In this document: positions 7,682 through 23,859 of the stretch, in pieces | Numbering within the stretch: position 1 is the first letter of the stretch | Layout: the number at the start of each line of letters is the position of its first letter | Assembly: GCA_965198005.1 (NCBI GenBank) | Contig: CBDAOI010000004.1 | Location: 256,001-320,000, forward strand | Reading direction: 5' to 3' | Source: Spirochaetia bacterium | Lineage (GTDB): Bacteria; Spirochaetota; Spirochaetia; SZUA-6; Bin103 | Length of the DNA: 64,000 nt | The notes under the pieces: generated by a model | What the model saw: only the letters and a program-made list of their open reading frames with translations | Databases searched by the model: none | What the model was told of the DNA's origin: nothing | Program-made: the position numbers and the translations under genes

Positions 7682-9514
7682 CTAATGACCCATTGCTTCC
7701 TTCAGCGCACTATCAATCCAGAGGCGGGCGAAGACAACATGGTTTTGGGCTGTTCCAAAGCCGCCTTCGGCGTTATAACCTTTCACCCACGGCTGGTGTA
7801 CGCTAAACACTGGGGCCAAAGGTCCCCAGAGGAACCAGTGCTGCTCTACGATGCGCATGTCCATCTCTTTAGTCAGCCTCATCGCCTCCTCTATCGTGGT
7901 AGCCTGTAAATTGGCTTCATAAAAGGCGTCATATTGCGCGTCGGAGACTCCAGAAAAACTCCGTGCAGTGGCCGAGTAAAACTGTGACTGTGCCCACAAT
8001 GGGTAGAACGGATCAGCCTTGATGCCCGCATTCCACCAGGCCATATCATAGTCTGCCGCGCCTATTCGAGCCCCATATTCTGCACCACTTGAAGGTACCT
8101 CAATAACCACATCAACGCCAATCTCACGCCAGTATGCTGCCTGTAATTCTGTCCAGCTCAAATCCTCCGCGGGGTGGAGCACAAACGTGGCCTTGAATCT
8201 AATGCCGTCAGCGCCACGAGCATATCCAGCCTCATCAAGCAACGCTTCTGCCCTTGCCTGGTCATAGGTATAGTATCCCTTAAGCTCTTGGGGCCACTCT
8301 TCAAATGGTACGTGCCACCCCTTGAAGTCCCTGGCGATCAGCCCCCGAGGTATCGTATCCGCCTGACTCTTATAGTAGGTAGCATTCATCGTCTCGAGGT
8401 CCAGTGCCATCTGCAGTGCGTGGCGCACCCTGATGTCGTCCCCCCAGAGCGGCCTGCGCTGGTTCAAACTGACAGAAGTATTCGACCGTTCTGACCACGT
8501 GTGGAACACGAGTTCGGGGTTGGTCCGCATGATGCTCTCTGCCAGGTCTAGAGCCGTTAATTGAGAGGCGCCCGGCCAACCTATGAAATGGATCCTTCCA
8601 CTGCGCAGTCCTGCCAGAACTGTTGCGTTTTCCGTGATAGAGAGGCTCTTTAGCTCGTCAATATACGGCAGGAGGTTCTCCGGGAATTTTTCGTCGTAAC
8701 CCCAGTAGTTGGGATTCTTGGTGAAGGTCATAGAGCTGCCCGGCACCAAGTCAGTTAGCATAAAGGGGCCGGTGCCGACCACGCTCTGCCACTCCCAATC
8801 GGCCCCGTATTCCTCGAGTAGCTCGGGGGGCTGCACAACCGCATTGTTCCAGTCCAAGATAAGGCCCAGGCCACGGAGTCTTTGCTCCTTCAGCTTCATA
8901 ACGACCGTATATTTGTCGGTGGCCACTATCGATTCCCAAGGCAAATCTAGAAGGTTACCTCCTCCTGGGGAAGGTTCGGCTTCACTGAACTCGGTCCCTG
9001 TCAATTTATTTCCCAACAAGCGGTGAAAGGAATGTTCTACATCCTCGGCAGTTAGCTCCCGACCGTTCACCGGCGGCTTATCATGCCAGTGAACGCCCTG
9101 GCGGATGTGGAAGATATAGGTTGTGTCGTCAGGCTGTTCCCAGCTTTCCGTCAGCGCCCCCCGTAGGGCGTATACAGGTGTAAGGTAGCCGCCGACAAAG
9201 GGATATGTGTCCCTATCTATTGCCCAGTTCGTCATGGCCAGTTTCTCTATAACGCCACTGAGAATGTTTAGCGTTCCCCCACCGCCAATATGGGCATCCG
9301 GTCGACGGCTGGCGGGATCCAATCTCATGACCTGGGTCATTGTCCCGCCATACTCTGGCGCGGGCACCACCTGACCTGTGCTGGGGTCGGTCACATACTT
9401 CTTGTCGGCAGCGGCTGCCGGCTCCTCTTCTGCGCCAGCGGCCCAGAGGCCGGTCGCGGTCATTACGAGGACCAACGCAACCGCGAAGGTCTTCGTCATT
9501 CGTACAATATTCAT
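7682..9514 (-). CDS. ABC transporter family-5 substrate-binding protein
   Basis: Signal-like N-terminus, ESWEQPDDTTYIFHIRQGVHWH, VGTGPFML and DIRVRHALQMALD. The start at 9514 follows a GGAG RBS. Confidence 0.9.
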   Translation of the reverse strand: MNIVRMTKTFAVALVLVMTATGLWAAGAEEEPAAAADKKYVTDPSTGQVVPAPEYGGTMTQVMRLDPASRRPDAHIGGGGTLNILSGVIEKLAMTNWAIDRDTYPFVGGYLTPVYALRGALTESWEQPDDTTYIFHIRQGVHWHDKPPVNGRELTAEDVEHSFHRLLGNKLTGTEFSEAEPSPGGGNLLDLPWESIVATDKYTVVMKLKEQRLRGLGLILDWNNAVVQPPELLEEYGADWEWQSVVGTGPFMLTDLVPGSSMTFTKNPNYWGYDEKFPENLLPYIDELKSLSITENATVLAGLRSGRIHFIGWPGASQLTALDLAESIMRTNPELVFHTWSERSNTSVSLNQRRPLWGDDIRVRHALQMALDLETMNATYYKSQADTIPRGLIARDFKGWHVPFEEWPQELKGYYTYDQARAEALLDEAGYARGADGIRFKATFVLHPAEDLSWTELQAAYWREIGVDVVIEVPSSGAEYGARIGAADYDMAWWNAGIKADPFYPLWAQSQFYSATARSFSGVSDAQYDAFYEANLQATTIEEAMRLTKEMDMRIVEQHWFLWGPLAPVFSVHQPWVKGYNAEGGFGTAQNHVVFARLWIDSALKEAMGH

Positions 9515-10662
9515 AACGAACTCCATAGAGTAGTTTCTTGAGAGTATTGCGTAGCGGATTACCGCTCCCTGGCTACTCTCGGGCCCGCAACGCGGACGGC
9601 CAGTCTGAGTCAGATTCACTAAGCGCGCGGCGTGTGACTCAGCGGGTTCACCCCGGCTCACGCCGCGCGCGCGTGCGGTTCTTTGAGTATCATTCGAACC
9701 TCCTTCTTCTCTAGATCTACGTCGGGATCTGCGTTACAATCCCACGCGGGGCGGTGGCCGGCGAAGCAGCGAGTCTGAATGGCCGGCAACGCCGGCGGTG
9801 AGTCTTGCCGGCAGTCAGTCGCAGGCGGGGATCCGGGACGGTTGCGATCGCCGGGAAGGGCGTGGCCGGTCCGCATGCCGGTTTTGCGATGGACCGAGCC
9901 GGCGCAACCGATAGCTATAGCTACGGCGGTGGTGAAGGCGCCCGCGTGCGCGGGGTCGCGTACGCGGCGATCAGCCGGGGCGGTTAGTTGTTTGTCGGTT
10001 CGAAAAAGTGTGTGTGGGGGGGGGGACTCCTCACCATTAAGCAAGCGCGCCGCGAGCTGATTTTCAGCAAATCTCGGCGAGCGGCTGTCAGGGGAACAGA
10101 GTGTCATAAGCGTTGACGTGTTATAGGTCACTCAAGCCCTCCGCAGGTGAGGCACAGCCCTACCCAGATGTAGTCGCGATGTCGCGATTGACTGCATCCC
10201 ACCCTAGAATAACCTCCGCTCCCGTGGACGTCAACCACGAATGATGGCCTGAAGAGACAGTCTGGGGGGCCCACCATTTGTCAACCCCCGCCGCGAAAGG
10301 ATTTCCGGGGAGGGGGGGATGGGCAAGGGTAGGACACGCCGGCTGCGCTGCCGCTAACCGGTGGCAGCGCTGAGTAGCGTTTTCAGCCATCTTTTGCATC
10401 CGTTCAAACCTGAGACTCTTAGTATACCACCTCTGCGGCAACCAATCAACAGAAAAAAACAGGCGAATTGAAGGTTTCTTGAGATTTCTTTCAGGCAGCC
10501 GCGGCAGCCGAGAGCCCCTCGCGGCGCCGACTCGGGCGCATCGCCCCTCCGGAGCCGTCATTCGCCGGCGATGTGGCCGTCCCCAGGCCGTTCACCGTCC
10601 ACGTCGGCCTCACAGCGGCCCGCTGAGGGCCTTCCAGCCCCTCGGGGGTAAGCCTGGGGTAC

Positions 10663-12573
10663 GAGCGCCAGGCTAACTGGCATATGACAGAGGGTGAAAG
10701 TCCCTCGGAACGAAGGAGCAGCCAATCCACGTTTCTCCGCGAGCCGTGCGTTGGCACCTGCGAGGGTGCAGGCGAAGCGTCGGCAGCGGTGCGTGCGGGC
10801 AGAGTTATGGAGCGCCGCAAAATACGACATCTGGAGTGCCGAGACTCTGTACTCGGTCGAAGGCAACACCGGTCGAGCCAGTATGGTGAGGATCGACCGG
10901 GCTCCACGGCGTCGAAGAACTCAGGCACGTACGTACGTCATATACCGGGACCTGGGAGGTCTTCGGGTCGTCCCGGCGAGTCGTCGCCGGGACCGCGGAG
11001 GGAAGGCGTGAGGCTGGACCAAAGATGAACGACCCGAAGGAGTCGGACATGGGCATAGTAGCGGCGAAGCCGGCGAACAAGGGAGCGCAAGCGACTGCGG
11101 AGACGGTGGAGCGAAGGCCCATGACCAACGGGAATTCGCAAGGCCAAAGCACGGGCCGGACGCAGAGTCGGGCAACCGTGACACAGGCGGCCGAGCGGAT
11201 ACGGCAATTCGTAAAGAGAGAACCGCAGGAGAAACTCACTGCGCTGCTGCACCACGTGACGCCGGAAGCGCTGGGTGGCCTATTACGCGCTGAAGCGCGA
11301 AGCGGCCCCGGGGGTGGACGGGATGACGTGGCGGGAGTACGAGACGGGGTTGGAAGTGCCTTGCACGACCTGCACCGGAGAGTACACACAGGAGCGTACC
11401 GAGCGACCCCGGTACGGCGGGTCAACATCGACAAGCCGGACGGAGGCACACGACCGCTGGGGGTGGCCGCGCTGGAGGACAAGATCGTCCAGAAGGCCGT
11501 GGTGGATGTGATCCTGACACCGATCTATGAGGAGGAATTTCTCGGGATCAGCTATGGGTTTCGACCGGGGCGAGGGGCACACGATGCGTTGGACGCACTG
11601 GCCTACGCCATCGAACGGCGCAAAGTGAACTGGATATTGGACGCGGACATTCGCGGCTACTTCGATTCGATCTCGCGGGACTGGTTGATCAGATTCCTGG
11701 AGCATCGGATTGGAGATCGGCGGGTACTGCGGCTGATAAAGAAGTGGCTGCGCGCTGGGGTACTGGAAGAAGGCCGACAGATCGACGCGGGGCGGGGTAC
11801 AGCGCAAGGGTCGGTGATTTCACCGATGCTCGCGAATATATACTTGCACTACGTGTTGGACCTGTGGGTCACCAAGAAGTGGCGGCCGCAGGAGGCGCGC
11901 GGAGACATGATCATAGTGCGCTACGCAGATGACTATGTCGCCGGGTTCGAGCATCGTGACGATGCGGAACGCTTCCTGCGGGAACTGAAGGAGCGATTCA
12001 GAGGCTTCGAGCTGGAACTGAACGCCGACAAGACCCGACTCCTCGAGTTTGGACGGTATGCCGAAAGGAACCGCCTGGCGCGCGGAGAAGGGCGACCGGA
12101 GACGTTCGACTTTCTGGGTTTCACGCATTATTGCAGGAAGGACAGGAAAGGACGCTTCGGGCTGGGGCGGAAGCCAATTCGGAAGCGGATGAATCGTACC
12201 TGAAGAGGATCAAGATCGAGCTCCGCAGACGCATGCATGATGACGTGATGGAAACCGGGCGCTGGCTGGGACGGGTACTGCGCGGATGGCTCAACTACTA
12301 CGCGGTACCCACCAGCTACCGCTACCTGTTCGATTCGTGTGGCGTCTGCGAGGAATCTGGGTAAAGATTCTACGCCGGAGGTCCCAGAAGGACCGATTCT
12401 CCTGGGCTTGGATGCTGGCGATCAGCATCAAGCTGTGGCCCCAACCCCGAATCGTACACTCATGGCCGGACCGGCGATTTGCCGTCAACCACCGAAGGTA
12501 GGAGCCGGATGGTTTAACGACCACGTCCGGATCTGTGCGGGGGGCGCCGGGTAACCGGCGTTCCTACCGCGCC
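10663..12573 (+). mobile_element. Group II intron, bacterial class E-like (copy A)
   Basis: The boundaries are defined by comparison with inverted copy B. Domain V (gagccggatg...gtccggatc, AGC triad) and domain VI lie at 12502-12573; the RT ORF is internal. Confidence 0.93.
11025..12501 (+). pseudogene. ltrA: Group II intron reverse transcriptase/maturase, no endonuclease domain, with several small frameshifts
   Basis: APGVDG, RPLGV, SYGFRPGRGAHDAL, QGSVISP, RYADD and FDFLGF are present. Indels near 11274 and 11359 are seen versus copy B; frame breaks also occur near 12200 and 12330. Confidence 0.88.
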
Positions 12574-12771
12574 CCCCTGCAACACCCGTCAACGCCGATT
12601 CCCGGCACCGCTGGCTCCGTATTGACCGCGCCGCCACCGCCCGCAGCCCAGCCTGGTCGGGTCGCAGCCACCTCCAGGACCAGCTACAGGAGTCTGTCGG
12701 ATTGCGACAGACTCATAGCGGTCGGACGGGATGGGCCAAAAGCGGCGCCCCGGCGGTTTTGGGGCGCTAGG

Positions 12772-13028
12772 CGACGGCAGACCTCCTCGAGCGTCAAGCC
12801 GCCGCTCCGTCAGTCGCCGCGCGCGGGGGGAATGGGCCGTTGCTGCGGCCGTCGCGGCGCTCCGGAGGTGCAACCGCGAGCCGCTCGTCGGTTGAGTTCG
12901 AGGCTGCTCGGACAGGAGCGGCAGCACGAGCGCCGCCGCGGCGACGATCTCGGCACTCGGACCCGTTCAGGGCCGGCATTCACCGCCGATTGGCCGGCCC
13001 CCTGAGGGCCTTCCAAACCCAGGGAGGT
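12772..13028 (+). repeat. Non-coding repeat unit, direct repeat of 14072-14363
   Basis: About 225 bp of near-identical sequence (cgacggcagacctcctcgagcgtc...gattggccgg) plus a shared ggccttccaaacccagggag. Confidence 0.85.
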
Positions 13029-14071
13029 GCTCACCGGGGCGCGCATCCGTGAAGACCTGCAGGGCTGCGACGGGCTGCGCTGGATCACGACCTTGCGCGT
13101 GCCTACCATCCGCAAGCTGATTGCGAACGGTCAGGTGGCGCAGTCGATGTTCGACCAGCGTGATCTGGCCGAGATCAGCTCACCCGACTTCCCCCGCGAG
13201 CGGCTGATCGTGTGCCGCAACCCGGTGTTGGCTGACCAACGCCACCGCAAGCGGCTGGAGTTGCTGGCCGCCACCGAGGACAAGCTGGCCCCCATCGTGA
13301 GAGCCACGCAGCGTGCCAAAGATCCGCTGCGCGGCGCCGCTGAGATCGGTATGCGGGTGGGCAAGGTGATCAATCAGCACAAGGTGAGCAAGCATTTCAT
13401 CACCACGATCACTGAGGACTCATTCACCTATGAACGTGACCTCGAGAAGATCGCTGCCGAAGAAGAACTGGACGGGCTGTACATCGTCCGCTCCAACGTC
13501 GAGCCGGAGTTGTTCGACGCCGATCAGACGGTACGCGCGTACAAGGACCTGTCCAAGGTAGAGCGCGCCTTCCGCAGTATGAAGACGGTGGATCTGAAGG
13601 TGCGCCCGATCTACCACCGGCGCGCTGACCGGGTACGGGCGCACGTACTGTTGTGCATGCTGGCCTACTACGTGGAGTGGCACATGCGCAGCGAGTTGGC
13701 GCCGGTGCTGTTCGATGACCACGATCCGGAGGCGGCACAGCAGCAACGGTCATCGGTGGTGCGACCGGCACAGCGGTCGCCCCGGCGGCACAGAAGAAGG
13801 CGGCCAGGAAGCGCACCGCTGACGATCTGCCGGTGCACAGTTTTCGCAGCCTGATGAACGACTTGGGGACTCTGACGGTCAACAAGATGCAACTTGCCAA
13901 GGCAGGGAGCACGTTCTTGCTGCCGACGCAGCCGACACCGGTGCAGCAGCGCTGCTTCGAGCTACTGGGGGTATCGCCCCGGATGTAGCCACGCACGGCA
14001 CATGCCATTTTGAGCGTAACTATATGACCCCTCGTGACTTACCAAGCATTTGGCTCTGGAACTTCGGGCTA
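13027..14071 (+). mobile_element. IS1634-family element, 5'-truncated, with frameshifted transposase (stop at 13988)
   Basis: ERLIVCRNP, LDGLYIVRSNV, YKDLSKVERAFRSMKTVDLKVRPIYHR and RVRAHVLLCMLAYY; right end ...gaacttcgggcta. Confidence 0.85.
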
Positions 14072-14726
14072 CGACGGCAGACCTCCTCGAGCGTCGAGCC
14101 GCTGCTCCGTCAGTCGCCGCACGCGGGGGGAGGGGCCGTTGCTGCGGCCGTCGCGGCGCTCCGGTGGTGCAACCGCGAGCCGCTCGTCGGTTGAGTTCGA
14201 GGCTGCTCGGACAGGAGCGGCAGCACGAGCGCCGCCGCGGCGACGATCTCGGCACTCGGACCCGTTCAGGGCCGGCATTCACCGCCGATTGGCCGGCAGC
14301 GGGCCGCTCGGCGTCCGAGTCGGCCTCATAGCGGCCCCCTGACGGCCTTCCAAACCCAGGGAGGGCGCGGTAGGAACGCCGGTTACCCGGCGCCCCCCGC
14401 ACAGATCCGGACGTGGTCGTTAAACCATCCGGCTCCTACCTTCGGTGGTTGACGGCAAATCGCCGGTCCGGCCATGAGTGTACGATTCGGGGTTGGGGCC
14501 ACAGCTTGATGCTGATCGCCAGCACACCGACCCTTGCGCTGTACCCCGCCCCGCGTCGATCTGTCGGCCTTCTTCCAGTACCCCAGCGCGCAGCCATTAT
14601 GGGCCCCCCGCTAATATGGGAACCTGGGCGCCATGAGCCGTTGCGTGGCAAGCGGTTAGGGGCTGAACAGGTTCCCATAACGTGCTGTCATCTCCCGGTG
14701 GTTTCTTACCACGAAGGAGATGAATC

Positions 14727-16274
14727 ATGGTCCTACCTTTCCGGCCCCATGCCTCACCCGGGGTCATCCAAGCGCTGGGGGAACGGGTCCTTCCGCCCTA
14801 CGAAGCGCATTTGAACGATCAGGGCTGTTCACCCGGCCTCTTGCACCGGTCGACAGCCACAGCCCGCCACATGATTGCGTGGCTGACGATCAACGAATCG
14901 GAGGTTGCGACACTCGACATCCGCGGCGTGTACCGCTTCCTGCGCCACGACTGCCACTGCCCAGCCGATGTCCGCAACCAGTCGGCCGCGCCGTCACCAT
15001 GGCACGCGCATCGTTTCCTCGGTTACTTGCTCGAAACCGGGCAGGCCGCGGTTCCCGCCTCGATCGTCACGGGCGGCGGACTGGTGGAAGCGTTTGCGGC
15101 CACCCTGGTGGCTCAAGGCTACCGGGAAGGGACCGTTCGCGGGGTGCGCAGCTCCTGTCGCCACCTCGTCGTCTGGCTGTACCGTTCGGAGCTCGCGTTG
15201 GGAGAGATCGAGGACCGCGTTCTGCAGCGGTTTCTCGACCATCGCTGCGATTGCGAGCACCCTGGATTCTTCGGCCGGTCCAGTGCATTCGCTGGAAGCC
15301 GCCGCACCCAGGCGGAGATCGCCAAGTTTGCCAGCTTCCTGATCGACCGGGATGTGGTTGCCGACTGGCGGGAGCCACTGCCGAAGGCCAGCGGCGGGGC
15401 CCATACCGACGCCTTCCTCCGCTGGCTGCGCCAGCACCGTGGTGTCCGCGACACCACCCTGAAGGCATACCGCCAATCCCTGCAAGCCCTGTTGCCGTTG
15501 CTGGGCGATGCCCCGGGCGCCTATGACGCCGCGTCGATCCGCGCGGTCATCCTGGGCCGTGCACAGTCCGGCTCCCGCAACACGGCCGAGGGCAGTGCCC
15601 TGCGATCGTACCTGCGCTTCTTGGCAGTCCAGGGGCTGTGCCGTCCGGGGCTCGTTGCTGCGGTCCCTACGATCCCGCGTCGGACCGCCTCGCAGTTGCC
15701 CCGGTATGTCGAGCAGGAAGACATCGAGGCCCTGATCGCGAGCTGCGACACCGCCACTTCCATCGGATTACGGGATCGGGCCGTCCTGCTGCTGCTGCTG
15801 CTGGCACGGCTCGCTCTGCGCCCCGGAGAAGTTGCCGCCTTGAGGCTCGACGACATCGACTGGGAGCAGGCGTTGGTCGCGGTCAGCGGGAAGTCGCGCC
15901 GCAGCGCAGCGCTGCCGTTGCCGCAGGAGACCGGGGACACCCTCAAGGACTACATCCTGCGAGCGCGACCGCGCACCGCCTGCCCGACGGTGCTTCCGCG
16001 ATTCCGTGCTCCGCACGGCTGCCTGTCCGCCTCCGCGGTCAGCGCAATCGTGCGCCGGGCCATGCAGCGGGCCGGGATCGACGGCGAGGGCCTCCCGGCC
16101 GCCTACGTGTTCCGTCACTCGAGAGCCACCCATCTGCTGCGCAGCGGAGCTGCGCCGGAGGCCGTCGGCGCCCTCCTGCGCCACCAGTCGGTGAAGACGA
16201 CCGCACTCTACGCTCGCGTGGATGCTCCGATGCTGCTCGCTGTGGCGCAGCCCTGGCCGGGGGAACCCCGATGA
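14727..16274 (+). CDS. RIT tyrosine recombinase A
   Basis: RDRAVLLL, LALRPGEV, VFRHSRAT and LLRHQSVKTTALYA. Confidence 0.9.
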   Translation: MVLPFRPHASPGVIQALGERVLPPYEAHLNDQGCSPGLLHRSTATARHMIAWLTINESEVATLDIRGVYRFLRHDCHCPADVRNQSAAPSPWHAHRFLGYLLETGQAAVPASIVTGGGLVEAFAATLVAQGYREGTVRGVRSSCRHLVVWLYRSELALGEIEDRVLQRFLDHRCDCEHPGFFGRSSAFAGSRRTQAEIAKFASFLIDRDVVADWREPLPKASGGAHTDAFLRWLRQHRGVRDTTLKAYRQSLQALLPLLGDAPGAYDAASIRAVILGRAQSGSRNTAEGSALRSYLRFLAVQGLCRPGLVAAVPTIPRRTASQLPRYVEQEDIEALIASCDTATSIGLRDRAVLLLLLLARLALRPGEVAALRLDDIDWEQALVAVSGKSRRSAALPLPQETGDTLKDYILRARPRTACPTVLPRFRAPHGCLSASAVSAIVRRAMQRAGIDGEGLPAAYVFRHSRATHLLRSGAAPEAVGALLRHQSVKTTALYARVDAPMLLAVAQPWPGEPR

Positions 16275-17197
16275 CGCTGGCCGACCACGTTCTGACCTAT
16301 GCCGCGTTCAAGCGCGCCACCGGCCTGGCCTTCCGGGAACAGGAGCGGCTGCTGGCCAGCTTCGCCCGGCACGCCGAAGCGCGGGGCGAGCGAAGCGTGC
16401 GCGTCGAGACTTGTCTCGACTGGGCGTCGCAGTCTGCGTCACCGCATAAAAAACAACAGCGGCTGCACCTCGTCTGCGGGCTGGCAGCCTACTTGCATGC
16501 CGAGGACGAACGCCACGAGGTGCCCCACCGCGATGCACTCGGTCGCCAGAGGTATCACCGCCCGCCGCCGCGGCTCCTGTCGCTGGAGCAGATCTGCCAA
16601 GTCATGGATGCGGCGCTGGAGCTGCCTCCCGCCGGCTCCATCACCCCCGTGACCTTCCATTACCTGATCGGGCTGGTCGCGGCGACCGGCCTGCGCCGCG
16701 CGGAAGCCACGGGCCTGCGGCTCGATGACGCCGCTGCGGACGGATTGCAGATCCGCCACGCGAAAGGCGGCAAGCAGCGGCTCGTGCCCCTCCACGGGAG
16801 CGTGCGGACCGCACTGAACCGGTATCTGCAGATCCGCGGGCGATGCGGCAGCCCCAGCGACCGTCTCTTCGTGCTCGCCGGCGGCCGGCCCGTCCAACCG
16901 GACTACCTGTCCCATACCTTTGTCCGACTCGCGCGCCAGATCGGCCTGCGTGGGGGCCCGGGCGAGCCCGGCCCGCGCCTGCATGACCTTCGTCACAGCT
17001 TCGCGACGCGTGCCCTGGAGACCGCTGTGTCCGGCGGTCGGGCAGAGACCAGCCGGCACCTGCTCGCGCTGTCCACCTATCTCGGCCATGCCAACGCCAC
17101 TGATACCTACTGGTACCTCGAGGCAACCCCGGTCCTGCTGAACCAAGTGTCGGCAGCCACCGAAAGACTGCATGCGGGGAGGGGGGACGATGACTGA
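16271..17197 (+). CDS. RIT tyrosine recombinase B
   Basis: TGLRRAEA, PRLHDLRHSFA and LSTYLGH...TYWYL; ATGA overlap with A. Confidence 0.92.
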   Translation: MTLADHVLTYAAFKRATGLAFREQERLLASFARHAEARGERSVRVETCLDWASQSASPHKKQQRLHLVCGLAAYLHAEDERHEVPHRDALGRQRYHRPPPRLLSLEQICQVMDAALELPPAGSITPVTFHYLIGLVAATGLRRAEATGLRLDDAAADGLQIRHAKGGKQRLVPLHGSVRTALNRYLQIRGRCGSPSDRLFVLAGGRPVQPDYLSHTFVRLARQIGLRGGPGEPGPRLHDLRHSFATRALETAVSGGRAETSRHLLALSTYLGHANATDTYWYLEATPVLLNQVSAATERLHAGRGDDD

Positions 17198-18014
17198 GCT
17201 CGCAGGGCCGCTGGCGGCCTTCCTCCAGGAGCACCTGCCGCGCGACCGCGGCGCCAGCCCGCATACCGTGGCGGGCTACGCCGCCAGCTTCAAGCTGCTG
17301 GCGGTCTTCGCGGCGGAGCGTCACAAGCTCCGGCCGTGCCGGCTGCAGGTCGGACATCTCGACATCCCGACGCTGCTCGCCTTTCTCAACCACCTCGAGA
17401 CGGACCGCGACAACGGCGTGCGGACCCGCAACGCCCGCTTGTCTGCGATCAAGTCCTTCTTCCGCTACCTGGAGTTCCGCCACCCGGAATGCTTGGATCT
17501 GGCGGCACAAGTGCATGCGCTGCCCCAAAAGAAAGCCGATCTGCCCCCGCTCGACTACCTCGACCGCGACGAGGTCCGGGCGCTGCTCGAGGCCCCCGCC
17601 ACCCACACGGTCACCGGCCTGCGGGATCGCGCCATGCTGTGCCTGGCCTACAATGCCGGCCTGCGCGTCTCGGAACTGGTCGGCCTGGCCCTGGACGACC
17701 TCCAGGCACCGGGACTCGACCGCATCCGGATCCTGGGCAAGGGCCGCCGCGGCCGCGTCCTGCCGCTGTGGAAGGAAACCCGCGGCGCGCTGCGCACTTG
17801 GCTCGGTGTCCGGCCGGACTGCCCCGACCGGCATCTGTTCCTGAACGCCTTCAAAACCGGCCTGACGCGACGCGGCTTCGCCAAGAGACTCGCCTTGCAC
17901 GCCAAGGCCGCGGCACGCGCAGTACCTTCGATCGCGGGCAAGGCCATCACGCCACACGCCCTGCGCCACGCCTGCGCACTTCATACGCGTTATGGGAACC
18001 TGCTCAGCCCCTAA
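17190..18014 (+). pseudogene. RIT tyrosine recombinase C, 3'-truncated (lacks the LGH...Y catalytic tail)
   Basis: YNAGLRVSEL, GKGRR and TPHALRHACA are present, then the frame runs into the terminal repeat. Confidence 0.8.
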
Positions 18015-18099
18015 CCGCTTGCCACGCAACGGCTCATGGCGCCCAGGTTCCCATATTAGCGGGGGGCCCATAATGGCTGTTACCGGAACGTTCCGATAA

Positions 18100-18828
18100 C
18101 AGCCACTTCTTTATCAGCCGCAGCACCCGCCGATCTCCAATCCGATGCTCCAGGAATCTGATCAACCAGTCCCGCGAGATCGTGTCGAAGTAGGCGCGAA
18201 TGTCCGCGTCCAATATCCAGTTCACTTTGCGCCGTTCGATGGCGTAGGCCAGTGCGTCCAACGCATCGTGTGCCCCGCGCCCCGGTCGAAACCCATAGCT
18301 GATCCCGAGAAATTCCTCCTCATAGATCGGTGTCAGGATCACATCCACCACGGCCTTCTGGACGATCTTGTCCTCCAGCGCGGCCACCCCCAGCGGTCGT
18401 GTGCCTCCGTCCGGCTTGTCGATGTTGACCCGCCGTACCGGGGTCGCTCGGTACGCTCCTGTGTGTACTCGCCGGTGCAGGTCGTGCAAGCGCACTTCCA
18501 ACCCCGTCTCGTACTCCCGCCACGTCATCCCGTCCACCCCCGGGGCCGCTTCACGCTTCAGCGCGTAATAGGCCACCCGCAGCGCTTCCGGCGTCACGTG
18601 GTGCAGCAGCGCAGTGAGTTTCTCCTGCGGTTCTCTCTTTACGAATTGCCGTATCCGCTCGGCCGCCTGTGTCACGGTTGCCCGACTCTGCGTCCGGCCC
18701 GTGCTTTGACCTTGCGAATTCCCGTTGGTCATGGGCCTTCGCTCCACCGTCTCCGCAGTCGCTTGCGCTCCCTTGTTCGCCGGCTTCGCCGCTACTATGC
18801 CCATGTCCGACTCCTTCGGGTCGTTCAT
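18100..18828 (-). pseudogene. ltrA: Group II intron RT, N-terminal half (copy B)
   Basis: Open frame MNDPKESD...RVLRLIKKWL, cut by the RIT insertion. Confidence 0.88.
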
Positions 18829-19379
18829 CTTTGGTCCAGCCTCACGCCTTCCCTCCGCGGTCCCGGCGACGACTCGCCGGGACGACCCGAAGACCTCCCA
18901 GGTCCCGGTATATGACGTACGCACGTGCCTGAGTTCTTCGACGCCGTGGAGCCCGGTCGATCCTCACCATACTGGCTCGACCGGTGTTGCCTTCGACCGA
19001 GTACAGAGTCTCGGCACTCCAGATGTCGTATTTTGCGGCGCTCCATAACTCTGCCCGCACGCACCGCTGCCGACGCTTCGCCTGCACCCTCGCAGGTGCC
19101 AACGCACGGCTCGCGGAGAAACGTGGATTGGCTGCTCCTTCGTTCCGAGGGACTTTCACCCTCTGTCATATGCCAGTTAGCCTGGCGCTCATACCCAGGG
19201 CACCCCCCGGAATCCCGCAAAATGCCCGTCAAAGCCGTTTCCCACCACCGCCGACACCGCTGACACCGCGCGGTCCGCCACCCGGCTCCCGTGTGCCACC
19301 TCGAACATCAATCCGAGACCGGCACTGATCAGCGCTTGCAGGTCAGGAACGACGTGAGGTGCGGGCTGCGGAACCCCCC

Positions 19380-19661
19380 TCAGTCGCGCCCATACCCGCG
19401 CGGCGGCTCGACGCTCTCCAGTTCGGCAAGATCAAGCCCGCACATCGCCTCCAGCCGCTGTGCGACCGCGGACTCCTGGAGACTGTCGGGCAAGTGGTCG
19501 AGCCACGCTTGATACTCACCCTGGAGGTCGAGCAGGGTGCCCACCGCATCCTGCCAGCGCTGCGGTCGGGACCTGCGGTCTTGCGGCCTGCGGTACTGCA
19601 CCCGGGGCTGCGCTGCCTTGCGGCGCTCTCGATAGCGCCGTTCCGCGTTACTTACCGCCAC
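19380..19661 (-). CDS. Small helical hypothetical protein, MGE-associated
   Basis: 93 aa with a basic N-terminus, RWQDAVGTLLDLQGEYQAWLDHLP and a PPRGYGRD end; co-oriented downstream of the IS110 gene. Confidence 0.7.
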   Translation of the reverse strand: MAVSNAERRYRERRKAAQPRVQYRRPQDRRSRPQRWQDAVGTLLDLQGEYQAWLDHLPDSLQESAVAQRLEAMCGLDLAELESVEPPRGYGRD

Positions 19662-19828
19662 TGCTCTACTTCCCGTTACGCTCCGTTACGTAACAGGTTA
19701 AAAGTTCGGATTTCCGTGCACCGGTGCCGGTTCGCGCCGAGCAGTCTCACCGCGCCTCCTGCCGGGTCTCCGGTCGCTCCCGTGAGCGGCGGGGACGACG
19801 CTTCCCGCGCCCGGCCCACCTTCCCCCA

Positions 19829-21091
19829 TCAGGCGGTCAGCGGTCGCGGAGCCCGGTGCTGTGGATCAAACTGCGTGCGGTCACGCAGCATCGCGCACGC
19901 CACCGCGAGCAACCGGTCCGCGACCGTACGCAGCGCCCGGCCATGGCGCTGCCCGCGCGCGCGCAGCGCCGCATACCGCTCCCGACTCACCGGATCGTGC
20001 TGGATCGCCACCCGCGCCCAGTGATACATCGCGTTGCTCAGCCGCTGGTTGCAGGCACGGCGCATGCTCACCTGGCAACTCTTCCCCGACCGCTTGGTCA
20101 CCGGCGCCACCCCGGTCAGAATCCGCAACCTGTGGTAGTCTCGCTCAGCCAGCAACTGTGAGGCCTCCGCGAACAGCGTGGCGAGCACGATCCGACCGAC
20201 ACCGGGCATCGAACGCAGGATGACGGCGTCACGCTGCTCTTCTGGTTCACCCGAGTCGTCGGCGGCCACAATCTCGGCCAGCAGTTCGTCGAGCCGGCTG
20301 TGCGCCTGTTTGAGTTGCTGGTCGACCAGCTTCAGCCGGGCGATGACGCTCGCGATGTGCGCCGTAGCCGCCGCTATCGTCCCGCGGCCCACCTCAAGCG
20401 GCTGCTGCCGCAGGATGCGCAGCACACCGGCAGCAGCGTGGCGCCGGATGCGGTTGCGCTTCAGGATGGCCGCGACCGACGCCTTCCGGACCCGCGCTGC
20501 CTCCGCCGGCGTCGGCGCCTTCTCCCACAACTCCAGAACCCAGCCCGCGCCGAGGTCACCGCCCAGCTCGATCAGCTGCGGGTAGTAGCGGCGCAGTTGC
20601 TCGCGCATGCGATTGATCAGCCCGTTGCGTTCCTCCTGCAACTCGGCAGTCAGGCGCGACCATTCCCGCAACTCGATCACCGGCGGTGCCTGCACCTGCA
20701 ACTGACGAAAGCTGCGTCGGTCGGTGCGCAGCGAGTCTGCCAACACCCGCGCGTCGCGCCGGTCATCCTTGGCGCCGGCCACCGTAAACCGGTCACGAAA
20801 TCGATCCAGCTGCTTCGGATTGATCGCGTACACCTGCACCTCCCGCTCCAGCAGCATCTCGACCACCGCGCCATGCGGCACCTCGATCCCCGCGTGCACG
20901 CGCTCCGGGTGCCCGCCGGATAGCTCGTGCAACCACGCGCACAAGTCGGCGATGCCGGCGCCGCTATGGGCCACCTGCCGTTCCGCGACCACCTCCCCGT
21001 CACCCTCAAGCACACAGATCTGATGTTGCTGGGTCGCCCAATCGATACCCACGAACCACTGTTCGGTCTGTTCGGTCTGTTCGGTTGACAT
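19829..21091 (-). CDS. IS110-family DEDD recombinase/transposase
   Basis: WFVGIDWA, GIEVPHG, AKDDRRDA, PGVG and the catalytic-serine motif PVTKRSGK; GGAGG RBS upstream. Confidence 0.95.
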   Translation of the reverse strand: MSTEQTEQTEQWFVGIDWATQQHQICVLEGDGEVVAERQVAHSGAGIADLCAWLHELSGGHPERVHAGIEVPHGAVVEMLLEREVQVYAINPKQLDRFRDRFTVAGAKDDRRDARVLADSLRTDRRSFRQLQVQAPPVIELREWSRLTAELQEERNGLINRMREQLRRYYPQLIELGGDLGAGWVLELWEKAPTPAEAARVRKASVAAILKRNRIRRHAAAGVLRILRQQPLEVGRGTIAAATAHIASVIARLKLVDQQLKQAHSRLDELLAEIVAADDSGEPEEQRDAVILRSMPGVGRIVLATLFAEASQLLAERDYHRLRILTGVAPVTKRSGKSCQVSMRRACNQRLSNAMYHWARVAIQHDPVSRERYAALRARGQRHGRALRTVADRLLAVACAMLRDRTQFDPQHRAPRPLTA

Positions 21092-21094
21092 CCT

Positions 21095-21345
21095 GTCACC
21101 TCCCGAGATTGTGGAGCTCGGCTGCCACGATGTCGTTCCACCCCTGTACTGGTGCTCCGGTGCTCCGGTGCTCCTGGCACCTTCCCACCTGGCACTACTC
21201 CTCACTGGGTATCCATCGCGGCACTCCTACCGGGGCACATGTCCCCCCCGGGCGCTCTACGGCGCGGGGGGCTCAAGGTTGCTCCCGGTAGGCTGCCTTG
21301 CCCGCCTGGGATTCTAGCAGTCCCTGGCGAACTATCTAATCTCTA
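21095..21345 (-). ncRNA. Putative IS110 bridge RNA
   Basis: Structured non-coding leader. Two 9-nt segments match the left arm and complement the right arm of the junction at 21352-21371. Confidence 0.75.
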
Positions 21346-21418
21346 TAAAGGGTACAGGGGGGACTCCTCACCATTTGTCAACCCCCGCGAAACGAATTCT
21401 TGGAACTCCCGCCGGGGG

Positions 21419-21962
21419 GGGCGCAGCGAGGCTAGCTGCTGAACTTGCGGGTGTAAGTCCCGCCGGCGCAAATCCCAGTGTGGCGCCGTAGTTATATCCG
21501 GCAGTCGACAGGGGCGACTCTGACGGCTGAAAGCCCGGAAGTAAACGTACTCAGGGGAGGGCGTGAGCCCGACCGACCAACCTAGGAGGCTAACAACCAG
21601 AAGGGCCGTAGCGAGAGCGAACGGACTAATCGCCGAAAACCTCCCCAGCGGGAAGTTGGTTGCTGGATCTCGGAGTGCCAAGGGTTTCCCCCTCCTACCC
21701 GATGGCCAGTGCTGCTGCGGAAGAAACTGGGAAGTGCACGCGGTAGGCTCCCGGCGGAAGTTGAAGGCGGCAATTCTGGATAGTTCAGCAGTGAAAGCCC
21801 GGAAGGTGTGCTGCTCAGGCAGGATGATCCTCGAATGCCAAGGACCGGACCTATAACCGCTGGATGGCGGGAAGTGGAACGGAGAGCAGCAGACTGGCGG
21901 ATGAGGCCACCAAGCGACGATGGCCGCGACAACATAACGCGGCTGGAGCGAGGGCCTCAGGG
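21419..21962 (+). mobile_element. 5' fragment (about domains I-III) of a second, different group II intron, cut by IS3
   Basis: GGGCG start, gcgggtgtaagtcccgc hairpin and a DIII-like gacaacataacgcggctggagcgagggcc segment; no RT ORF or domain V. Confidence 0.65.
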
Positions 21963-22029
21963 TGAGGTGGTCCTGGAAAATTGGACAGGAGGTTAAGGTG
22001 TATTCGAGGCCATGAGGAGGGCCAAGGAG

Positions 22030-22314
22030 ATGGCGACGACACGACGTCGATTCACAGCGGAGTTCAAGGCACGGGTAGTGGTGGAAGCGTTGCGCGGTGA
22101 CCGCACGATCCAGGAGATCGGGGCCAAGCACCACGTCCATCCGAACCAGGTGAGCGGCTGGAAACGGCAAGCACAGGATGGTCTGCGGGAACTGTTCGCG
22201 GACGGCGCCAGCCGCCGGCAGGCGGATCACGAGGCGACCATCCACGAGTTGCACGCGAAGATCGGCGAGTTGACGGTGGAGCGGGATTTTTTAGCACGCG
22301 GGCTCAAGCTCTGA
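22030..22314 (+). CDS. IS3 transposase OrfA
   Basis: Identical protein to 3218-3502. Confidence 0.9.
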   Translation: MATTRRRFTAEFKARVVVEALRGDRTIQEIGAKHHVHPNQVSGWKRQAQDGLRELFADGASRRQADHEATIHELHAKIGELTVERDFLARGLKL

Positions 22315-22334
22315 GACGGGACGAACGACGGAAG

Positions 22335-23168
22335 ATGATTGAACGTGACTACGAGAACTTGAGCTTGAGCCGGCAGTGCACCCTGCTTGGACTGAGCCGC
22401 TCGGCGTTGTACTACACGCCGGTCGGCGAGAGCGCGGCGAACTTGGCGCTGATGCGGCGCATCGATGAGTTGTACCTGCAGTACCCGTTCTACGGCGCTC
22501 GGCAGATGGTACGCCATCTGGCGCGTGAGGGGGTGACCGTCGGTCGGCACCGGGTGCGGCGGCTGATGCGGCTGCTGGGCTTGGAGGCGATCTACCGCAA
22601 GCCGCGGCTCAGCGTCGCGAACCCGGAGCATCGGGTGTATCCCTATCTGCTGCGGGGGCTGACGATCGACCGCGCGAATCAGGTGTGGTGCGCGGATATC
22701 ACCTACATCCCGGTGCAGGGCGGGTTCCTGTACTTGGTGGCGATCATGGACTGGGCCAGCCGGCGGGTGCTGGCGTGGCGGCTGTCCAACACGTTGGACA
22801 CCCGGTTCTGTGTCGAGGCACTGGAGGAAGCGCTGGAGATGTACGGCAACCCGGAGATCTTCAACACCGATCAGGGGAGCCAGTTCACCAGCATCGCGTT
22901 CACGGAGCTGCTGGTGGCGGCGGGGATACGCTGTTCGATGGACGGTCGCGGTCGTTGCCTGGACAATGTGTTCATCGAGCGGCTGTGGCGGTCCCTGAAG
23001 TACGAAGCGGTCTACCTGCACGAGTTGGCGGACGGCTTCGTGGCGCAGCGGGTGATCGACGAGTGGATCGAGTTCTACAACGAGGTACGACCGCACTCGG
23101 CACTCGGTGGCCGGACGCCGTCCGAGGCCTACCGCGGCGTCGCGGCGCCCGGACGGGAGGTGGCGTAA
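22335..23168 (+). CDS. IS3 transposase OrfB (DDE)
   Basis: WCADITY, TDQGSQF and ERLWRSLKYE in one frame. Confidence 0.93.
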   Translation: MIERDYENLSLSRQCTLLGLSRSALYYTPVGESAANLALMRRIDELYLQYPFYGARQMVRHLAREGVTVGRHRVRRLMRLLGLEAIYRKPRLSVANPEHRVYPYLLRGLTIDRANQVWCADITYIPVQGGFLYLVAIMDWASRRVLAWRLSNTLDTRFCVEALEEALEMYGNPEIFNTDQGSQFTSIAFTELLVAAGIRCSMDGRGRCLDNVFIERLWRSLKYEAVYLHELADGFVAQRVIDEWIEFYNEVRPHSALGGRTPSEAYRGVAAPGREVA

Positions 23169-23397
23169 CGGACATGGGGAGCAGGTGGCAATTGCGGGTT
23201 CCGAGGTCAGAGGGCGAGCGGGTGTGCGATCCGGTGCGGGGAGTTATCCACAATGTCCACAGGATCAAGCCCCCCCTCCCCCAGACCCCCACCCCCTGTT
23301 ACCGCCACCTGTTTTTGACAGGGAGGGGTGGGTTGACAGACAACGGAATACACCTTAACTTACCCCCCGGGCTGTCCAACCAACCGGGACCACCTCA

Positions 23398-23522
23398 GGT
23401 TGGCGCCCTCAGCGAGCCACTGGTCGCCGGCCGTGAGGGCCATCACGTGCGCCTTGGAGACCATGGGAACCACGCTGAAATCGAAATTGGCGAGGGTCTT
23501 GCCGGGTGGCAGGCGCGCCTGG
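23398..23522 (-). pseudogene. istB: IS21 IstB fragment, upstream half of the split gene
   Basis: QARLPPGKTLANFDFSVVPMVSKAHVMALTAGDQWLAEGAN continues in frame into the 3023-3150 fragment. Confidence 0.85.
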
Positions 23523-23613
23523 TTTGCGCGTATTGTCAAGCCCCGTTACATTGGGGAGCGTAACAACCGTGCCGGGCGACACAGAGACTAGGCACGACGT
23601 AAGGACGGTCGAA

Positions 23614-23859
23614 ATGAGCGACATTCTCCAGACCGAGAAGGACTATCTCAAGACCAAGCAAGCAGAGCTGGCCAAGGAGCACCCCGGCAAATACCTGGTG
23701 ATCCGGAAGGGAGAGGTGATCGGAGCGTACGATTCGTACGACGAAGCTGTCGAGGCGGCCGATTCTCTCGGTATTGGACCGTTCCTCGTCAGGTCGGTCC
23801 ACCGTCCCGAGGACGATCCAACACTCGTCGTACCAGCCCTGGCGCTTGGCCTCCTGTGA
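23614..23859 (+). CDS. Small DUF5678-like protein
   Basis: YLKTKQAELAKEHPGKYLVIRKGEVIGAYDSYDEAVEAA; GTGA overlap with the protease gene. Confidence 0.7.
   Translation: MSDILQTEKDYLKTKQAELAKEHPGKYLVIRKGEVIGAYDSYDEAVEAADSLGIGPFLVRSVHRPEDDPTLVVPALALGLL

Follow-up and report, generated by a model that had tools for sequence, protein, structure and literature searches.

The question raised by this locus is where an IS110-family insertion sequence (IS) ends. The original prediction noted a motif immediately before the left end that recurs far beyond the recombinase gene, so that either the right end lies 11.3 kb away, with an intron/RIT (recombinase-in-trio) region as cargo, or related elements insert beside each other's ends. 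In the window, i.e., the whole 64-kb stretch of DNA that was analyzed, the 15-mer AATGGTGAGGAGTCC indeed has exactly two matches (10024-10038 and 21361-21375), both on the minus strand and followed there by C10 and C6, respectively; no third match was found in these 64 kb when up to two mismatches were allowed. Two exact repeat pairs join these regions, one of 19 nt (10020-10038 and 21357-21375) and the predicted TTGACA-containing one of 20 nt (10272-10291 and 21369-21388). The reported lack of such a motif just downstream of the recombinase also holds, as the 12-mer GGTGAGGAGTCC, searched in 10000-21960 with up to two mismatches, matches only at 10024-10035 and 21361-21372.

The segment 10026-21356 is very probably a single IS110-group, bridge-RNA-guided IS whose right part has been stretched from about 35 nt, as in compact relatives, to 9.8 kb (Table 1). 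At the right end of this IS110-group element, the terminus is AATGGTGAGGAGT, with a C-run behind it, and the incorporation of other mobile DNA seems to have enlarged the element from about 1.6 kb to 11.3 kb. Both alternatives are supported as being true at once: the right end is at 10026, with the intron/RIT region inside, and the motif at 21361-21375 is the terminus of another element, now a solo remnant lying head to tail. The left end itself calls for a correction, as it begins only after the C-run, with TGTACCC at 21356.

Table 1. Features of the expanded element and its junctions in the window.
Feature	Position	Strand	Evidence or remarks
Whole expanded IS110-group element	10026-21356	-	11,331 bp, from the TGTACCC left end to the right end ...AATGGTGAGGAGT
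C10, right half of the split C-run target	10016-10025	-	C-run after the terminus
Module M2	10026-10242	-	Ends in the working terminus AATGGTGAGGAGT (10026-10038)
Module M1	10243-10450	-	Ends in the internal pseudo-end TTGACAAATGGTG+GG+C6 (10264-10284)
Q, diverged homologue of Y	10451-10662	-	
Full-length group II intron A carrying a reverse transcriptase	10663-12572	+	In the P/Q palindrome, opposite orientation
P, diverged homologue of 'tail'	12573-12687	-	
79-bp dispersed small repeat	12688-12766	-	More than 30 copies; between P and Ya
Second, partial Y/Ya copy	12767-13027	-	Flanks the IS1634 fragment
IS1634-family transposase fragment	13028-14068	+	NCBIfam NF033559
Y/Ya, second half of the repeat unit	14069-14363	-	
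Group II intron B, internally deleted	14364-19190	-	At the tail/Y junction; Rfam RF02005
RIT element inside intron B	14597-18099	+	92-bp terminal inverted repeats; three Phage_integrase ORFs
'Tail', first half of the ~350-nt non-coding repeat unit	19191-19290	-	Ends in a G-rich palindrome, the intron homing site
Right-part segment RE1	19291-19828	-	Contains a 93-aa ORF (19380-19661) that belongs to no known family
Intact IS110-family DEDD/Tnp recombinase of 420 aa	19829-21091	-	PF01548, PF02371, NF033542
Left end of 265 nt, non-coding, with three stem-loops in a bridge-RNA-like transcript	21092-21356	-	Fold and consensus fold
Stem-loop 3, donor-binding loop	21124-21222	-	Guides match both termini
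Stem-loop 2, target-binding loop	21226-21292	-	In relatives, these loop positions correspond to the left flank and to the right flank's complement
C6 with the CC core, left half of the split C-run target	21357-21362	-	C5 or longer before TGTACC at every lineage left junction
Solo right-end remnant, 51 nt	21363-21413	-	Terminus 21363-21375 and TTGACA 21376-21381, between C8 (21414-21421) and C6

Regarding the recombinase, it carries both Pfam domains of the family, PF01548 (2.9e-34) and PF02371 (1.5e-15), and scores 161.2 bits against NCBIfam NF033542, 'IS110 family RNA-guided transposase' (cut-off 140). Its start is the ATG at 21091, preceded by GGGAGG, and not the GTG at 21205 of the longest ORF. 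The residues described as catalytic in IS621 (D11, E60, D102, D105 and S241; PMC11208158), together with the Gly following the Ser, are all conserved in a phmmer alignment to 8wt6_A that is weak (E 3e-8) and split in two stretches.

The left end has the features of a bridge RNA, and all four guides could be placed in it. The single fold reaches -76.5 kcal/mol (z -3.2), and the consensus fold of seven copies has 66 pairs, four of them with compensatory changes; no Rfam family matched the left end at E up to 0.1. The left donor guide, GTGAGGAGT (21197-21205, left-end position 152), is identical to the last nine nucleotides of the far right end, while the right donor guide, GTACAGGGG (21141-21149, left-end position 208), is the exact complement, over nine nucleotides, of the left-end junction. 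In the consensus fold, they face each other across one internal loop, and matches of at least nine nucleotides for both were obtained in 2 of 3000 dinucleotide shuffles. Eight copies of the lineage keep these guides, except that GTGAGGAGT ends in C instead of T in two copies and that GTACAGGGG has one mismatch in the sister genome G005.

The target guides are homopolymers, C6 on the left (21266-21271) and G7 on the right (21243-21249), thus specifying a C-run as the target, in keeping with the C-runs that flank all junctions of the lineage. As C6 and G7 are able to pair with each other, the guides may be partly hidden in the free RNA. The G7 guide is followed by AC, found in 10 of 11 left ends and complementary to the terminal GT of every right end, a pairing that resembles the handshake guide described for IS621 (PMC11208158). 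Recombination would take place at CC, once the recombinase and its bridge RNA have paired the junction of right and left end in an excised circle with a C-run.

Compact relatives from other phyla (1567-1676 bp) have the same layout, and their guides change together with the flanks and termini of each element, with a CC core throughout the family, whose flanks end in CC. In all elements whose right end was covered, the right terminus is a copy of the 9-mer found on loop 3's 5' side. In loop 2, the 3' side is the complement of the right flank over 8 nt in L015 and 7 nt each in L020, L023, L027, L016, the window and G003, and the 5' side equals the left flank over 7 nt in L015 and L017, 8 in L027, 9 in G005 and 10 in L018. 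The match was partial on the left in L016, L020 (5 nt exact) and L023 (4 nt), and on the right in L017 (5 nt) and G005 (4 nt). Right-side matches of at least 6 nt occur in seven of nine elements and left-side matches of at least 7 nt in 5 of 11, with C6 in two more; these counts come from reading the loops by eye, as an automatic longest-match script chose off-loop matches in several rows.

The same boundaries recur throughout the genome. The left boundary, from CCCCCTGTACCC onward, is common to all nine genomic copies, which have seven kinds of left flank, and the right boundary is common to 21 motif copies with at least seven kinds of right flank. These 21 occurrences of the 15-mer plus C-run have 60 nt of upstream sequence in common; 15 stand at the downstream end of recognizable element parts in a fixed order, and six are solo. 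The order left end-gene-RE1-tail-Y-P-Q-M1-M2 is repeated at at least 12 loci with 96-98% identity, compared to just 72-84% for the adjoining transporter genes. The right-end variant of the solo remnant is present in four genomic copies, the other three being at the downstream end of element parts, where one closes a complete copy of 11.2 kb.

In the sister genomes, the 13-mer has a single occurrence each in G003 and G005 and two in G001, the reversed-pattern controls giving none. It lies 3.9 and 2.9 kb downstream of the single IS110 copy in G003 and G005 (6.5-8 Mb), and the IS-linked 13-mers close elements of 3,897 bp (G003), 2,885 bp (G005) and about 2.9 kb (G001) in the same orientation; RE1 is missing from these sister-genome copies. 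Among five further full-length copies in sister genomes, the terminus was not seen in two on short contigs, with 1.4 kb (G004) and 2.9 kb (G006) downstream. Wherever enough sequence is available, the lineage copies all reach to this one distant terminus, giving sizes of 2.9-11.3 kb against the 1567-1676 bp of the relatives. Copies ending at another sequence a few hundred bp past the stop codon, which the original prediction had named as evidence against it, are absent from the lineage; short right ends belong only to the distant compact relatives, which use the same kind of terminus.

Also proposed was the mapping of alleles before and after insertion, for which the nearest case is a sibling copy of 6.5 kb on C1, whose body is common to the window copy and whose left flank is unrelated. 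Its site has an uninterrupted counterpart in G003 (locus L049), where 1054-1395 and 1400-1565, joined by C6, correspond to the left (92.7%) and right (89.2%) flanks of the C1 copy. As the neighboring transporter gene is just 75% identical to that of C1, this is a paralogous or much-diverged counterpart and no proven allele.

The right part seems to have grown stepwise downstream of the gene, first by ~350-nt tandem units and then by the modules M1 and M2, and would have been invaded later by the two group II introns, the IS1634 fragment and the RIT element. Tandem non-coding units of 352 bp are present at C1 19885-21200 and C4 167.6-175.3 kb. Intron A (Rfam RF02005, 169.5 bits; RVT_1; TIGR04416, 290 bits) is missing from the C1 sibling copy, where its site is uninterrupted. 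Intron B (RF02005, 169.5 bits at 18932-19156) has an uninterrupted site at C4 1383120-1383280, and comparing the breakpoints of the RIT element with intron A leaves a 6-nt overlap. The IS1634 fragment scores 143 bits against NF033559, covering profile positions 228-434 of 483, and is present in the C1 copy as well. The intron/RIT region lies inside the element, as predicted, not as a gene block picked up as such but as a stretched non-coding right part with later nested insertions. The 20-bp repeat at 10272-10291 is not a working end: it belongs to an internal pseudo-end, TTGACAAATGGTG (10272-10284), with a one-sided donor match. Since each right end is followed by the rest of its C-run, new copies would tend to land directly behind resident right ends, which would yield the head-to-tail junction at 21357-21375.

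In the lineage, TTGACA is located 13 nt from the right terminus, a place where relatives have TTGACA, TTGCTA or TTGACC. This could be the -35 box of a promoter completed across the point where right end and left end are joined, as in IS621. The candidate -10 box, TACCCT, is 17 nt from TTGACA only if two C separate the ends; at the head-to-tail junction of the window, with six C, the spacing of 21 nt is too long for a sigma-70 promoter.

Genuine ends would also be compatible with another mode of spread for the large copies (window, C1 and C4 165600-176799), i.e., homologous recombination or segmental duplication involving the leader and module repeats, with only small parts still moving. The genome is full of repeats of 90-98% identity, the window copy and the C1 copy each have a leader-type right flank with an (AC)n stretch, at 86% identity to each other, and a 2026 preprint reports that whole-unit mobility drops with size and that partial mobilization is common (bioRxiv 10.64898/2026.08.14.744561). 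However, the high identity of the window and C1 copies breaks off precisely at the element boundaries: on the left at TGTACC, outside which the flanks are unrelated, and on the right at the terminus. Moreover, both copies have the same nested insertions (IS1634 fragment, 79-bp repeat and intron B), indicating that at least 6.5 kb were copied together as one unit between IS ends, which makes spread by recombination improbable.

It is less probable still that a compact IS110 ends near 19191-19290 and that the distant motif is a host leader repeat of transporter operons favored by the IS. All motif copies are upstream of SBP_bac_5 transporter genes with a common leader, 6 of the 21 have no IS110 part nearby, and module M2 also occurs behind a different upstream module. 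Nevertheless, the left end holds its exact 9-nt copy of the distant terminus at the place where relatives hold their own, two sister genomes have the 13-mer at a single place, behind the one IS110 copy that each contains, no alternative terminus was found near the stop codon in any lineage copy, and the uninterrupted site lacks the whole block and not the gene alone. Finally, chance matching in G+C-rich, repeat-rich DNA, for which the base composition (65.8% G+C) is the sole point, is refuted by the shuffled expectation of 0.08 matches to AATGGTGAGGAGTCC in the window against two observed (reached in 1 of 100 shuffles) and by the 60 nt that its genomic copies have in common.

The element resembles IS621 of Escherichia coli and other IS110-group bridge recombinases, as described by Durrant et al. 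2024 (PMC11208160) and Hiraizumi et al. 2024 (PMC11208158). Both have a DEDD RuvC-like plus Tnp recombinase with aligned catalytic D, E, D, D and S, a long left end whose RNA forms two loops, the target loop preceding the donor loop, guides including the 2-nt core, and no terminal inverted repeats; the -35 box at the right end has a candidate counterpart here. In contrast, the protein is only distantly similar to IS621 (E 3e-8), CC takes the place of CT as the core, the C6 and G7 guides and the C-run target replace a mixed word of 11-14 nt, and the right part extends over 9.8 kb, compared to tens of nucleotides.

In the IS1111 group, the guide RNA is placed in a long right end with subterminal inverted repeats, according to the account in PMC11208160, the opposite of this element, with its guides in the left end and no recognized guide in the long right part. 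Membership in that group was ruled out by the location of all four guides and by the termini TGTACCC and GAGGAGT, which are not inverted repeats, whereas the group has subterminal ones of 7-17 bp. Some IS1111-group elements, e.g., IS4321/IS5075, are inserted into transposon ends. They share with the present element the recombinase family and a location at the ends of mobile DNA already in place. ISPpu10 and other IS110 members are described as targeting REP repeats (bioRxiv 10.64898/2026.03.19.712850; PMC1525189), being likewise aimed at a short multi-copy intergenic sequence, which is a palindromic REP there and a simple C-run at leader-module junctions here.

With 11,331 bp, the element is beyond the compact size of about 1.0-1.6 kb with a short right end and was filed under the expanded form, i.e., the cargo-bearing IS110 loci described by Hu, Xie, Yang and Rubin (bioRxiv 10.64898/2026.08.14.744561). 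Such loci have in common with this element a 3' non-coding region that is extended and akin to host DNA, non-coding units in tandem beside the recombinase gene, more than one insertion into a locus already occupied, an internal boundary keeping only the left-donor match and the same body in different contexts. The 352-bp units and the one-sided pseudo-end were found here, as was the same body elsewhere with an occupied and an empty site, the latter being the G003 counterpart of the C1 site and no proven allele. The interior differs, consisting mostly of other mobile elements (two group II introns, RIT and IS1634 fragment) instead of plasmid or resistance genes, as does the host, an uncultured marine Spirochaetia lineage. 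Given the reported fall of whole-unit mobility with size, the 11.3-kb copy may have lost its movement as a single piece. As growth of this kind is already described in that preprint, the present element is a new example of a known mechanism.

The recombinase of the expanded IS110-group element (window 10026-21356, minus strand, 11,331 bp) is encoded by an ORF at 19829-21205 (-) with DEDD_Tnp_IS110 and Transposase_20 domains, whose start is ATG 21091, with GGGAGG upstream, giving a product of 420 aa. It scores 161 bits against NCBIfam NF033542 ('IS110 family RNA-guided transposase', cut-off 140) and, when aligned to IS621 from E. coli (8wt6_A), keeps the five catalytic positions as named in PMC11208158. 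Regarding the left boundary, a left-end probe finds nine copies in the genome holding the window (G000, contigs C1-C4), all nine alike from CCCCCTGTACCC onward, with upstream flanks of seven kinds; therefore, the boundary is placed at TGTACCC, at 21356, and it is preceded by a run of C5 or longer.

As put forward in the original prediction, the right end lies 11.3 kb from the left end, with the intron and RIT (recombinase-in-trio) region inside, as seen by a fixed order of landmarks, the guides and the relatives. A search of the window for the 15-mer on which that proposal was built, AATGGTGAGGAGTCC, gave two matches on the minus strand, 10024-10038 and 21361-21375 (expected count in the shuffled window, 0.08), and there is an exact 19-nt repeat pair at 10020-10038 and 21357-21375. 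The C-run said to follow each 15-mer is also present directly after both on that strand (C10 at 10016-10025 and C6 at 21357-21362). G000 holds 21 copies of the 15-mer, 17 of them ending a 217-nt module (M2) and four in a short form. A landmark map of this genome gives a fixed order of left end, gene and the successive right-part segments RE1, tail, Y/Ya, P, Q, M1 and M2 at no fewer than 12 loci, which are 96-98% identical to each other; the adjacent transporter genes are just 72-84% identical. The motif closes such an array in 15 of 21 copies and stands solo in six, and four copies of the element have both ends (see the table).

The IS110 of sister genomes of the same genus is 83-86% identical. 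Searches for the 13-mer AATGGTGAGGAGT gave one match each in G003 and G005 and two in G001, against 0 for its reversed control pattern in these three genomes, and the IS-linked 13-mer closes elements of 2,885 bp (G005), 3,897 bp (G003) and about 2.9 kb (G001). A terminus was not found for the G004 and G006 copies, whose contigs hold just 1.4 and 2.9 kb downstream. In addition, the two halves of a G003 locus (L049, 1054-1395 and 1400-1565), with C6 between them, match the flanks of the C1 copy (left 92.7%, right 89.2%), which are 6.5 kb apart in G000. By this match, the locus is the uninterrupted counterpart of the C1 copy's site, not a proven allele, because the adjoining gene is just 75% identical to its C1 counterpart. 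The window copy's own orthologous empty site was sought in the sister genomes, with no ortholog nameable, since the transporter family at its right flank has 34 matches in G000 and the best sister-genome matches reach just 79%. A first reading, taking the motifs as host repeats unrelated to IS110 ends, was dropped on the landmark map, the sister genomes and the guide matches.

The 265-nt left end, the putative bridge RNA, forms three stem-loops (fold z-score -3.2), and the consensus fold of seven left-end copies has 66 pairs, with compensatory changes in four. The third stem-loop has an internal loop, one side of which carries GTGAGGAGT at 21197-21205, identical to the final 9 nt of the distant right end, and the opposite side GTACAGGGG at 21141-21149, complementary to CCCCTGTAC of the left junction; both donor-guide matches reached at least 9 nt in 2 of 3000 dinucleotide shuffles. 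PMC11208160 describes the donor-binding loop of IS621 as having a top-strand-like left guide, a complementary right guide and the core in both, and the window guides have this layout. Scanned against Rfam (E up to 0.1), window 8000-24000 gave matches to group II introns alone, with no match in the left end. Among contigs of public runs, which are blind to transcription, RNA ends and circles, a 172-nt RNA-library contig corresponds to window 21190-21361 with 0 differences, and another contig joins the element's left end to the C1 flank; they covered the stretch without the element's right end.

Relatives from Hyphomicrobiaceae, Bradyrhizobium and Acidobacteriota whose proteins are 43-62% identical are compact (1567-1676 bp), have TGTACC as first bases and end about 35 nt past the stop codon with TTGACA, TTGCTA or TTGACC followed by about 13 nt. 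Every relative repeats, as its own right terminus, the 9-mer that stands in the left-donor position of its left end (GTGGGGAGT or ATAGGAGGT). The 3' side of loop 2, the target-binding loop, is the complement of the right flank over 8 nt in locus L015, over 7 nt each in L020, L023, L027 and L016, and over just 5 nt in L017, while its 5' side equals the left flank over 7 nt in L015, 7 in L017, 10 in L018, 8 in L027 and 9 in G005, matching it poorly in L016, L020 and L023. Off-loop hits of the automatic longest-match table for the window (left), L017, L023, G003 and G005 (right) were left out of these counts. CC is found where the element meets every flank. Judged by this covariation, the compact relatives settle the guide assignment, and the core is CC. 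Moreover, in 10 of 11 left ends the right target guide is followed by AC, which is complementary to the GT that terminates every right end and resembles the handshake guide described for IS621 in PMC11208158.

In the lineage of the window element, the target guides are C6 at 21266-21271 and G7 at 21243-21249, which occupy positions homologous to those of the relatives' guides, and the target is predicted to be a stretch of about 11 C. All junctions in the lineage fit a C-run target, with C5 to C12 before the left end and mostly C9 to C30 behind the right end, shorter in a few copies. G000 has 160 runs of at least eight C or G against 25 of at least eight A or T, and the occupied runs are the joints of upstream repeat modules with a leader shared by SBP_bac_5 (ABC-transporter) operons. 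A target consisting of a C-run split by TGTA, or a core including GT or TGT, was rejected because G000 has no C-runs split by TGT and because the right flanks of the family are CC plus the guide complement, without TGT; C-runs split by TCTC are likewise absent from G000. A match of the left target guide continuing into TGT as a handshake was dropped because the IS621 handshake bases adjoin the right-side guides, as far as described in PMC11208158.

Eleven C-runs at module-leader joints of G000 are split by TGTA, the four bases with which the IS left end begins, with no IS there. They look like footprints of imprecise element loss, in which the CCC within TGTACCC would have recombined with the C-run that follows the right end; events out of register or with a half match are another possible origin.

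The insertion of related elements beside each other's ends, also anticipated, is probably reflected at the left end, where a 51-nt solo right end (21363-21413, TTGACA plus terminus), flanked by C8 and C6, abuts the left end at 21356; the other three G000 copies of this variant close recognisable elements. The pair forms a head-to-tail junction resembling a donor junction, and would arise from a new copy landing in the C-run behind a resident right end. The spacing from TTGACA to TACCCT is 21 nt with six C, and two C would give 17 nt; a promoter may be completed where the right end joins the left end. The exact 20-nt repeat at 10272-10291 and 21369-21388 was confirmed by a repeat search of the window, and its proposed role as an end motif held in part: the copy at 21369-21388 overlaps the solo right end, but that at 10272-10291 is an internal pseudo-end, consisting of TTGACAAATGGTG followed by GG and C6. 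The sister-genome elements stop directly after TTGACAAATGGTGAGGAGT, without M2, which would have been added beyond the pseudo-end.

Regarding the interior, with breakpoints taken from uninterrupted paralogous sites, a non-coding unit of about 350 nt is present in two copies, tail/Y and P/Q, which have diverged from each other. Directly behind IS110 genes (C1 19885-21200 and C4 167600-175300) the unit is arrayed in tandem with a length of 352 bp, and six-frame reading of these arrays gave no convincing gene. The G-rich palindrome at its centre (GGGGTAC/CCC) serves as homing site for group II introns (Rfam RF02005), which enter it in either orientation, and its boundary, GGTGGGAGCC, is similar to the right-end terminus. 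One end of the RIT element bears a 32-nt palindrome (18074-18105); the element's insertion site lies inside the intron's reverse-transcriptase gene, with a 6-nt overlap.

Features of the window element, its two-ended relatives in G000 and neighbouring sequences
Feature	Location	Description
Two-ended copy	window	11.3 kb
Two-ended copy	C1 202238-208769	6.5 kb
Two-ended copy	C4 1718132-1722343	4.2 kb
Two-ended copy	C4 165600-176799	11.2 kb
First unit copy	19191-19290 + 14069-14363	
Second unit copy	12573-12687 + 10451-10662	
Group II intron B	14364-19190	in first unit
Group II intron A	10663-12572	in second unit, opposite orientation
RIT element	14597-18099	inside intron B; three tyrosine recombinases, 92-bp terminal inverted repeats
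IS1634 fragment	13028-14068	between the two units
79-bp repeat	12688-12766	between the two units
TGTA-split C-runs (examples)	C4 2393494, C1 245269, C2 888382, C2 779732, C3 977435, C4 111397, C4 2346612	
IS3-family HTH_Tnp_1 ORF	22012-22314	
IS3-family rve ORF	22335-23168	
IS3-family ends		39-nt imperfect inverted ends

The C1 copy has the IS1634 fragment, the 79-bp repeat and intron B in common with the window copy, is without intron A and the RIT element, and has a left flank unrelated to that of the window. Therefore, a block delimited by IS ends and at least 6.5 kb long was copied, and the window copy would have gained intron A and the RIT element afterwards; the right part has probably grown stepwise. 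A 93-aa ORF of the right part (19380-19661, minus strand), ending in PPRGYGRD, belongs to no Pfam or NCBIfam family, and the sister-genome elements lack the segment holding it. A small FitA-like ribbon-helix-helix ORF (L010 9324-9527; PF22513, 28.7 bits against a cut-off of 27) lies in the right part of the 2.9-kb G005 element, and the start of a related gene is found upstream of one solo M2 copy (G000 C4 1743227). In addition, a G001 locus (L013, C1 4222000-4233000) carries a partial copy of the right part and gene of the G000 type, most segments being 97-100% identical (range 90-100%), whereas the two genomes otherwise differ by about 20% at transporter genes, which suggests a recent element transfer between the two species.

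Beyond the solo right end, a 548-bp repeat (21415-21962, seven copies in G000) has an Rfam group-II-D1D4-4 match on the plus strand (51.6 bits, threshold 49), is 93% identical over 21709-21962 to the interior of the G005 element's right part and is covered at high depth by RNA-library contigs. It is cut off by an IS3-family element (21954-23398). On the other side, the SBP_bac_5 transporter gene (7682-10015 region) belongs to a family that also has at least 30 matches in several sister genomes; in G000, about 50 genes have the shared leader (about 170 nt; window 9850-10015) in front of them, and a C-run nearly always separates it from the upstream repeat modules. Two IS110-family genes of another lineage are present in G000 (C2 198742-199176 and C4 366371-366649), one with a 475-aa open frame.

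Many leader C-runs are landing sites, junctions or putative footprints of the element, which explains much of the modular leader/C-run architecture upstream of the G000 transporter operons. It is conceivable, albeit improbable, that the hypermutable C-run target serves both as spacer of the junction promoter and as leader-module joint of about 20 ABC-transporter operons, acting as a slippage switch, with co-opted remnants and IS-shaped leaders. If so, C-run slippage would turn the expression of bridge RNA and recombinase on and off, the right-end remnants upstream of transporters (TTGACA and a GAGGAG Shine-Dalgarno-like terminus) would be co-opted movable control modules, and an RNA-guided IS would have moulded the modular leaders of an entire gene family in spirochaetes of a sponge-associated lineage.

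The mechanism of the element is that of IS621-type bridge recombinases, and a natural element of this kind is here fully dissected, with four guides assigned and covariation-checked across phyla. Thus, a homopolymer can be programmed into a bridge RNA, RNA-specified ends can still bound an IS110-family element after seven-fold growth, and such growth can come from the nesting of retroelements and RIT elements. A bioRxiv study of August 2026 (10.64898/2026.08.14.744561) describes natural IS110 loci growing to 100 kb, with non-coding extensions on the 3' side, non-coding units in tandem next to the gene, repeated insertions into loci that were already occupied, and internal boundaries where the donor matches are one-sided; on that description, the window element is a member of this expanded kind. 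The recombinase clade may already be in the bridge-RNA models or boundary tables of the 2024 and 2026 studies. At the level of literature listings, no IS110 was found to target homopolymer tracts or to carry such nested elements, and the window element is distinguished by its homopolymer target, its CC core and its interior of nested retroelements and an RIT element.
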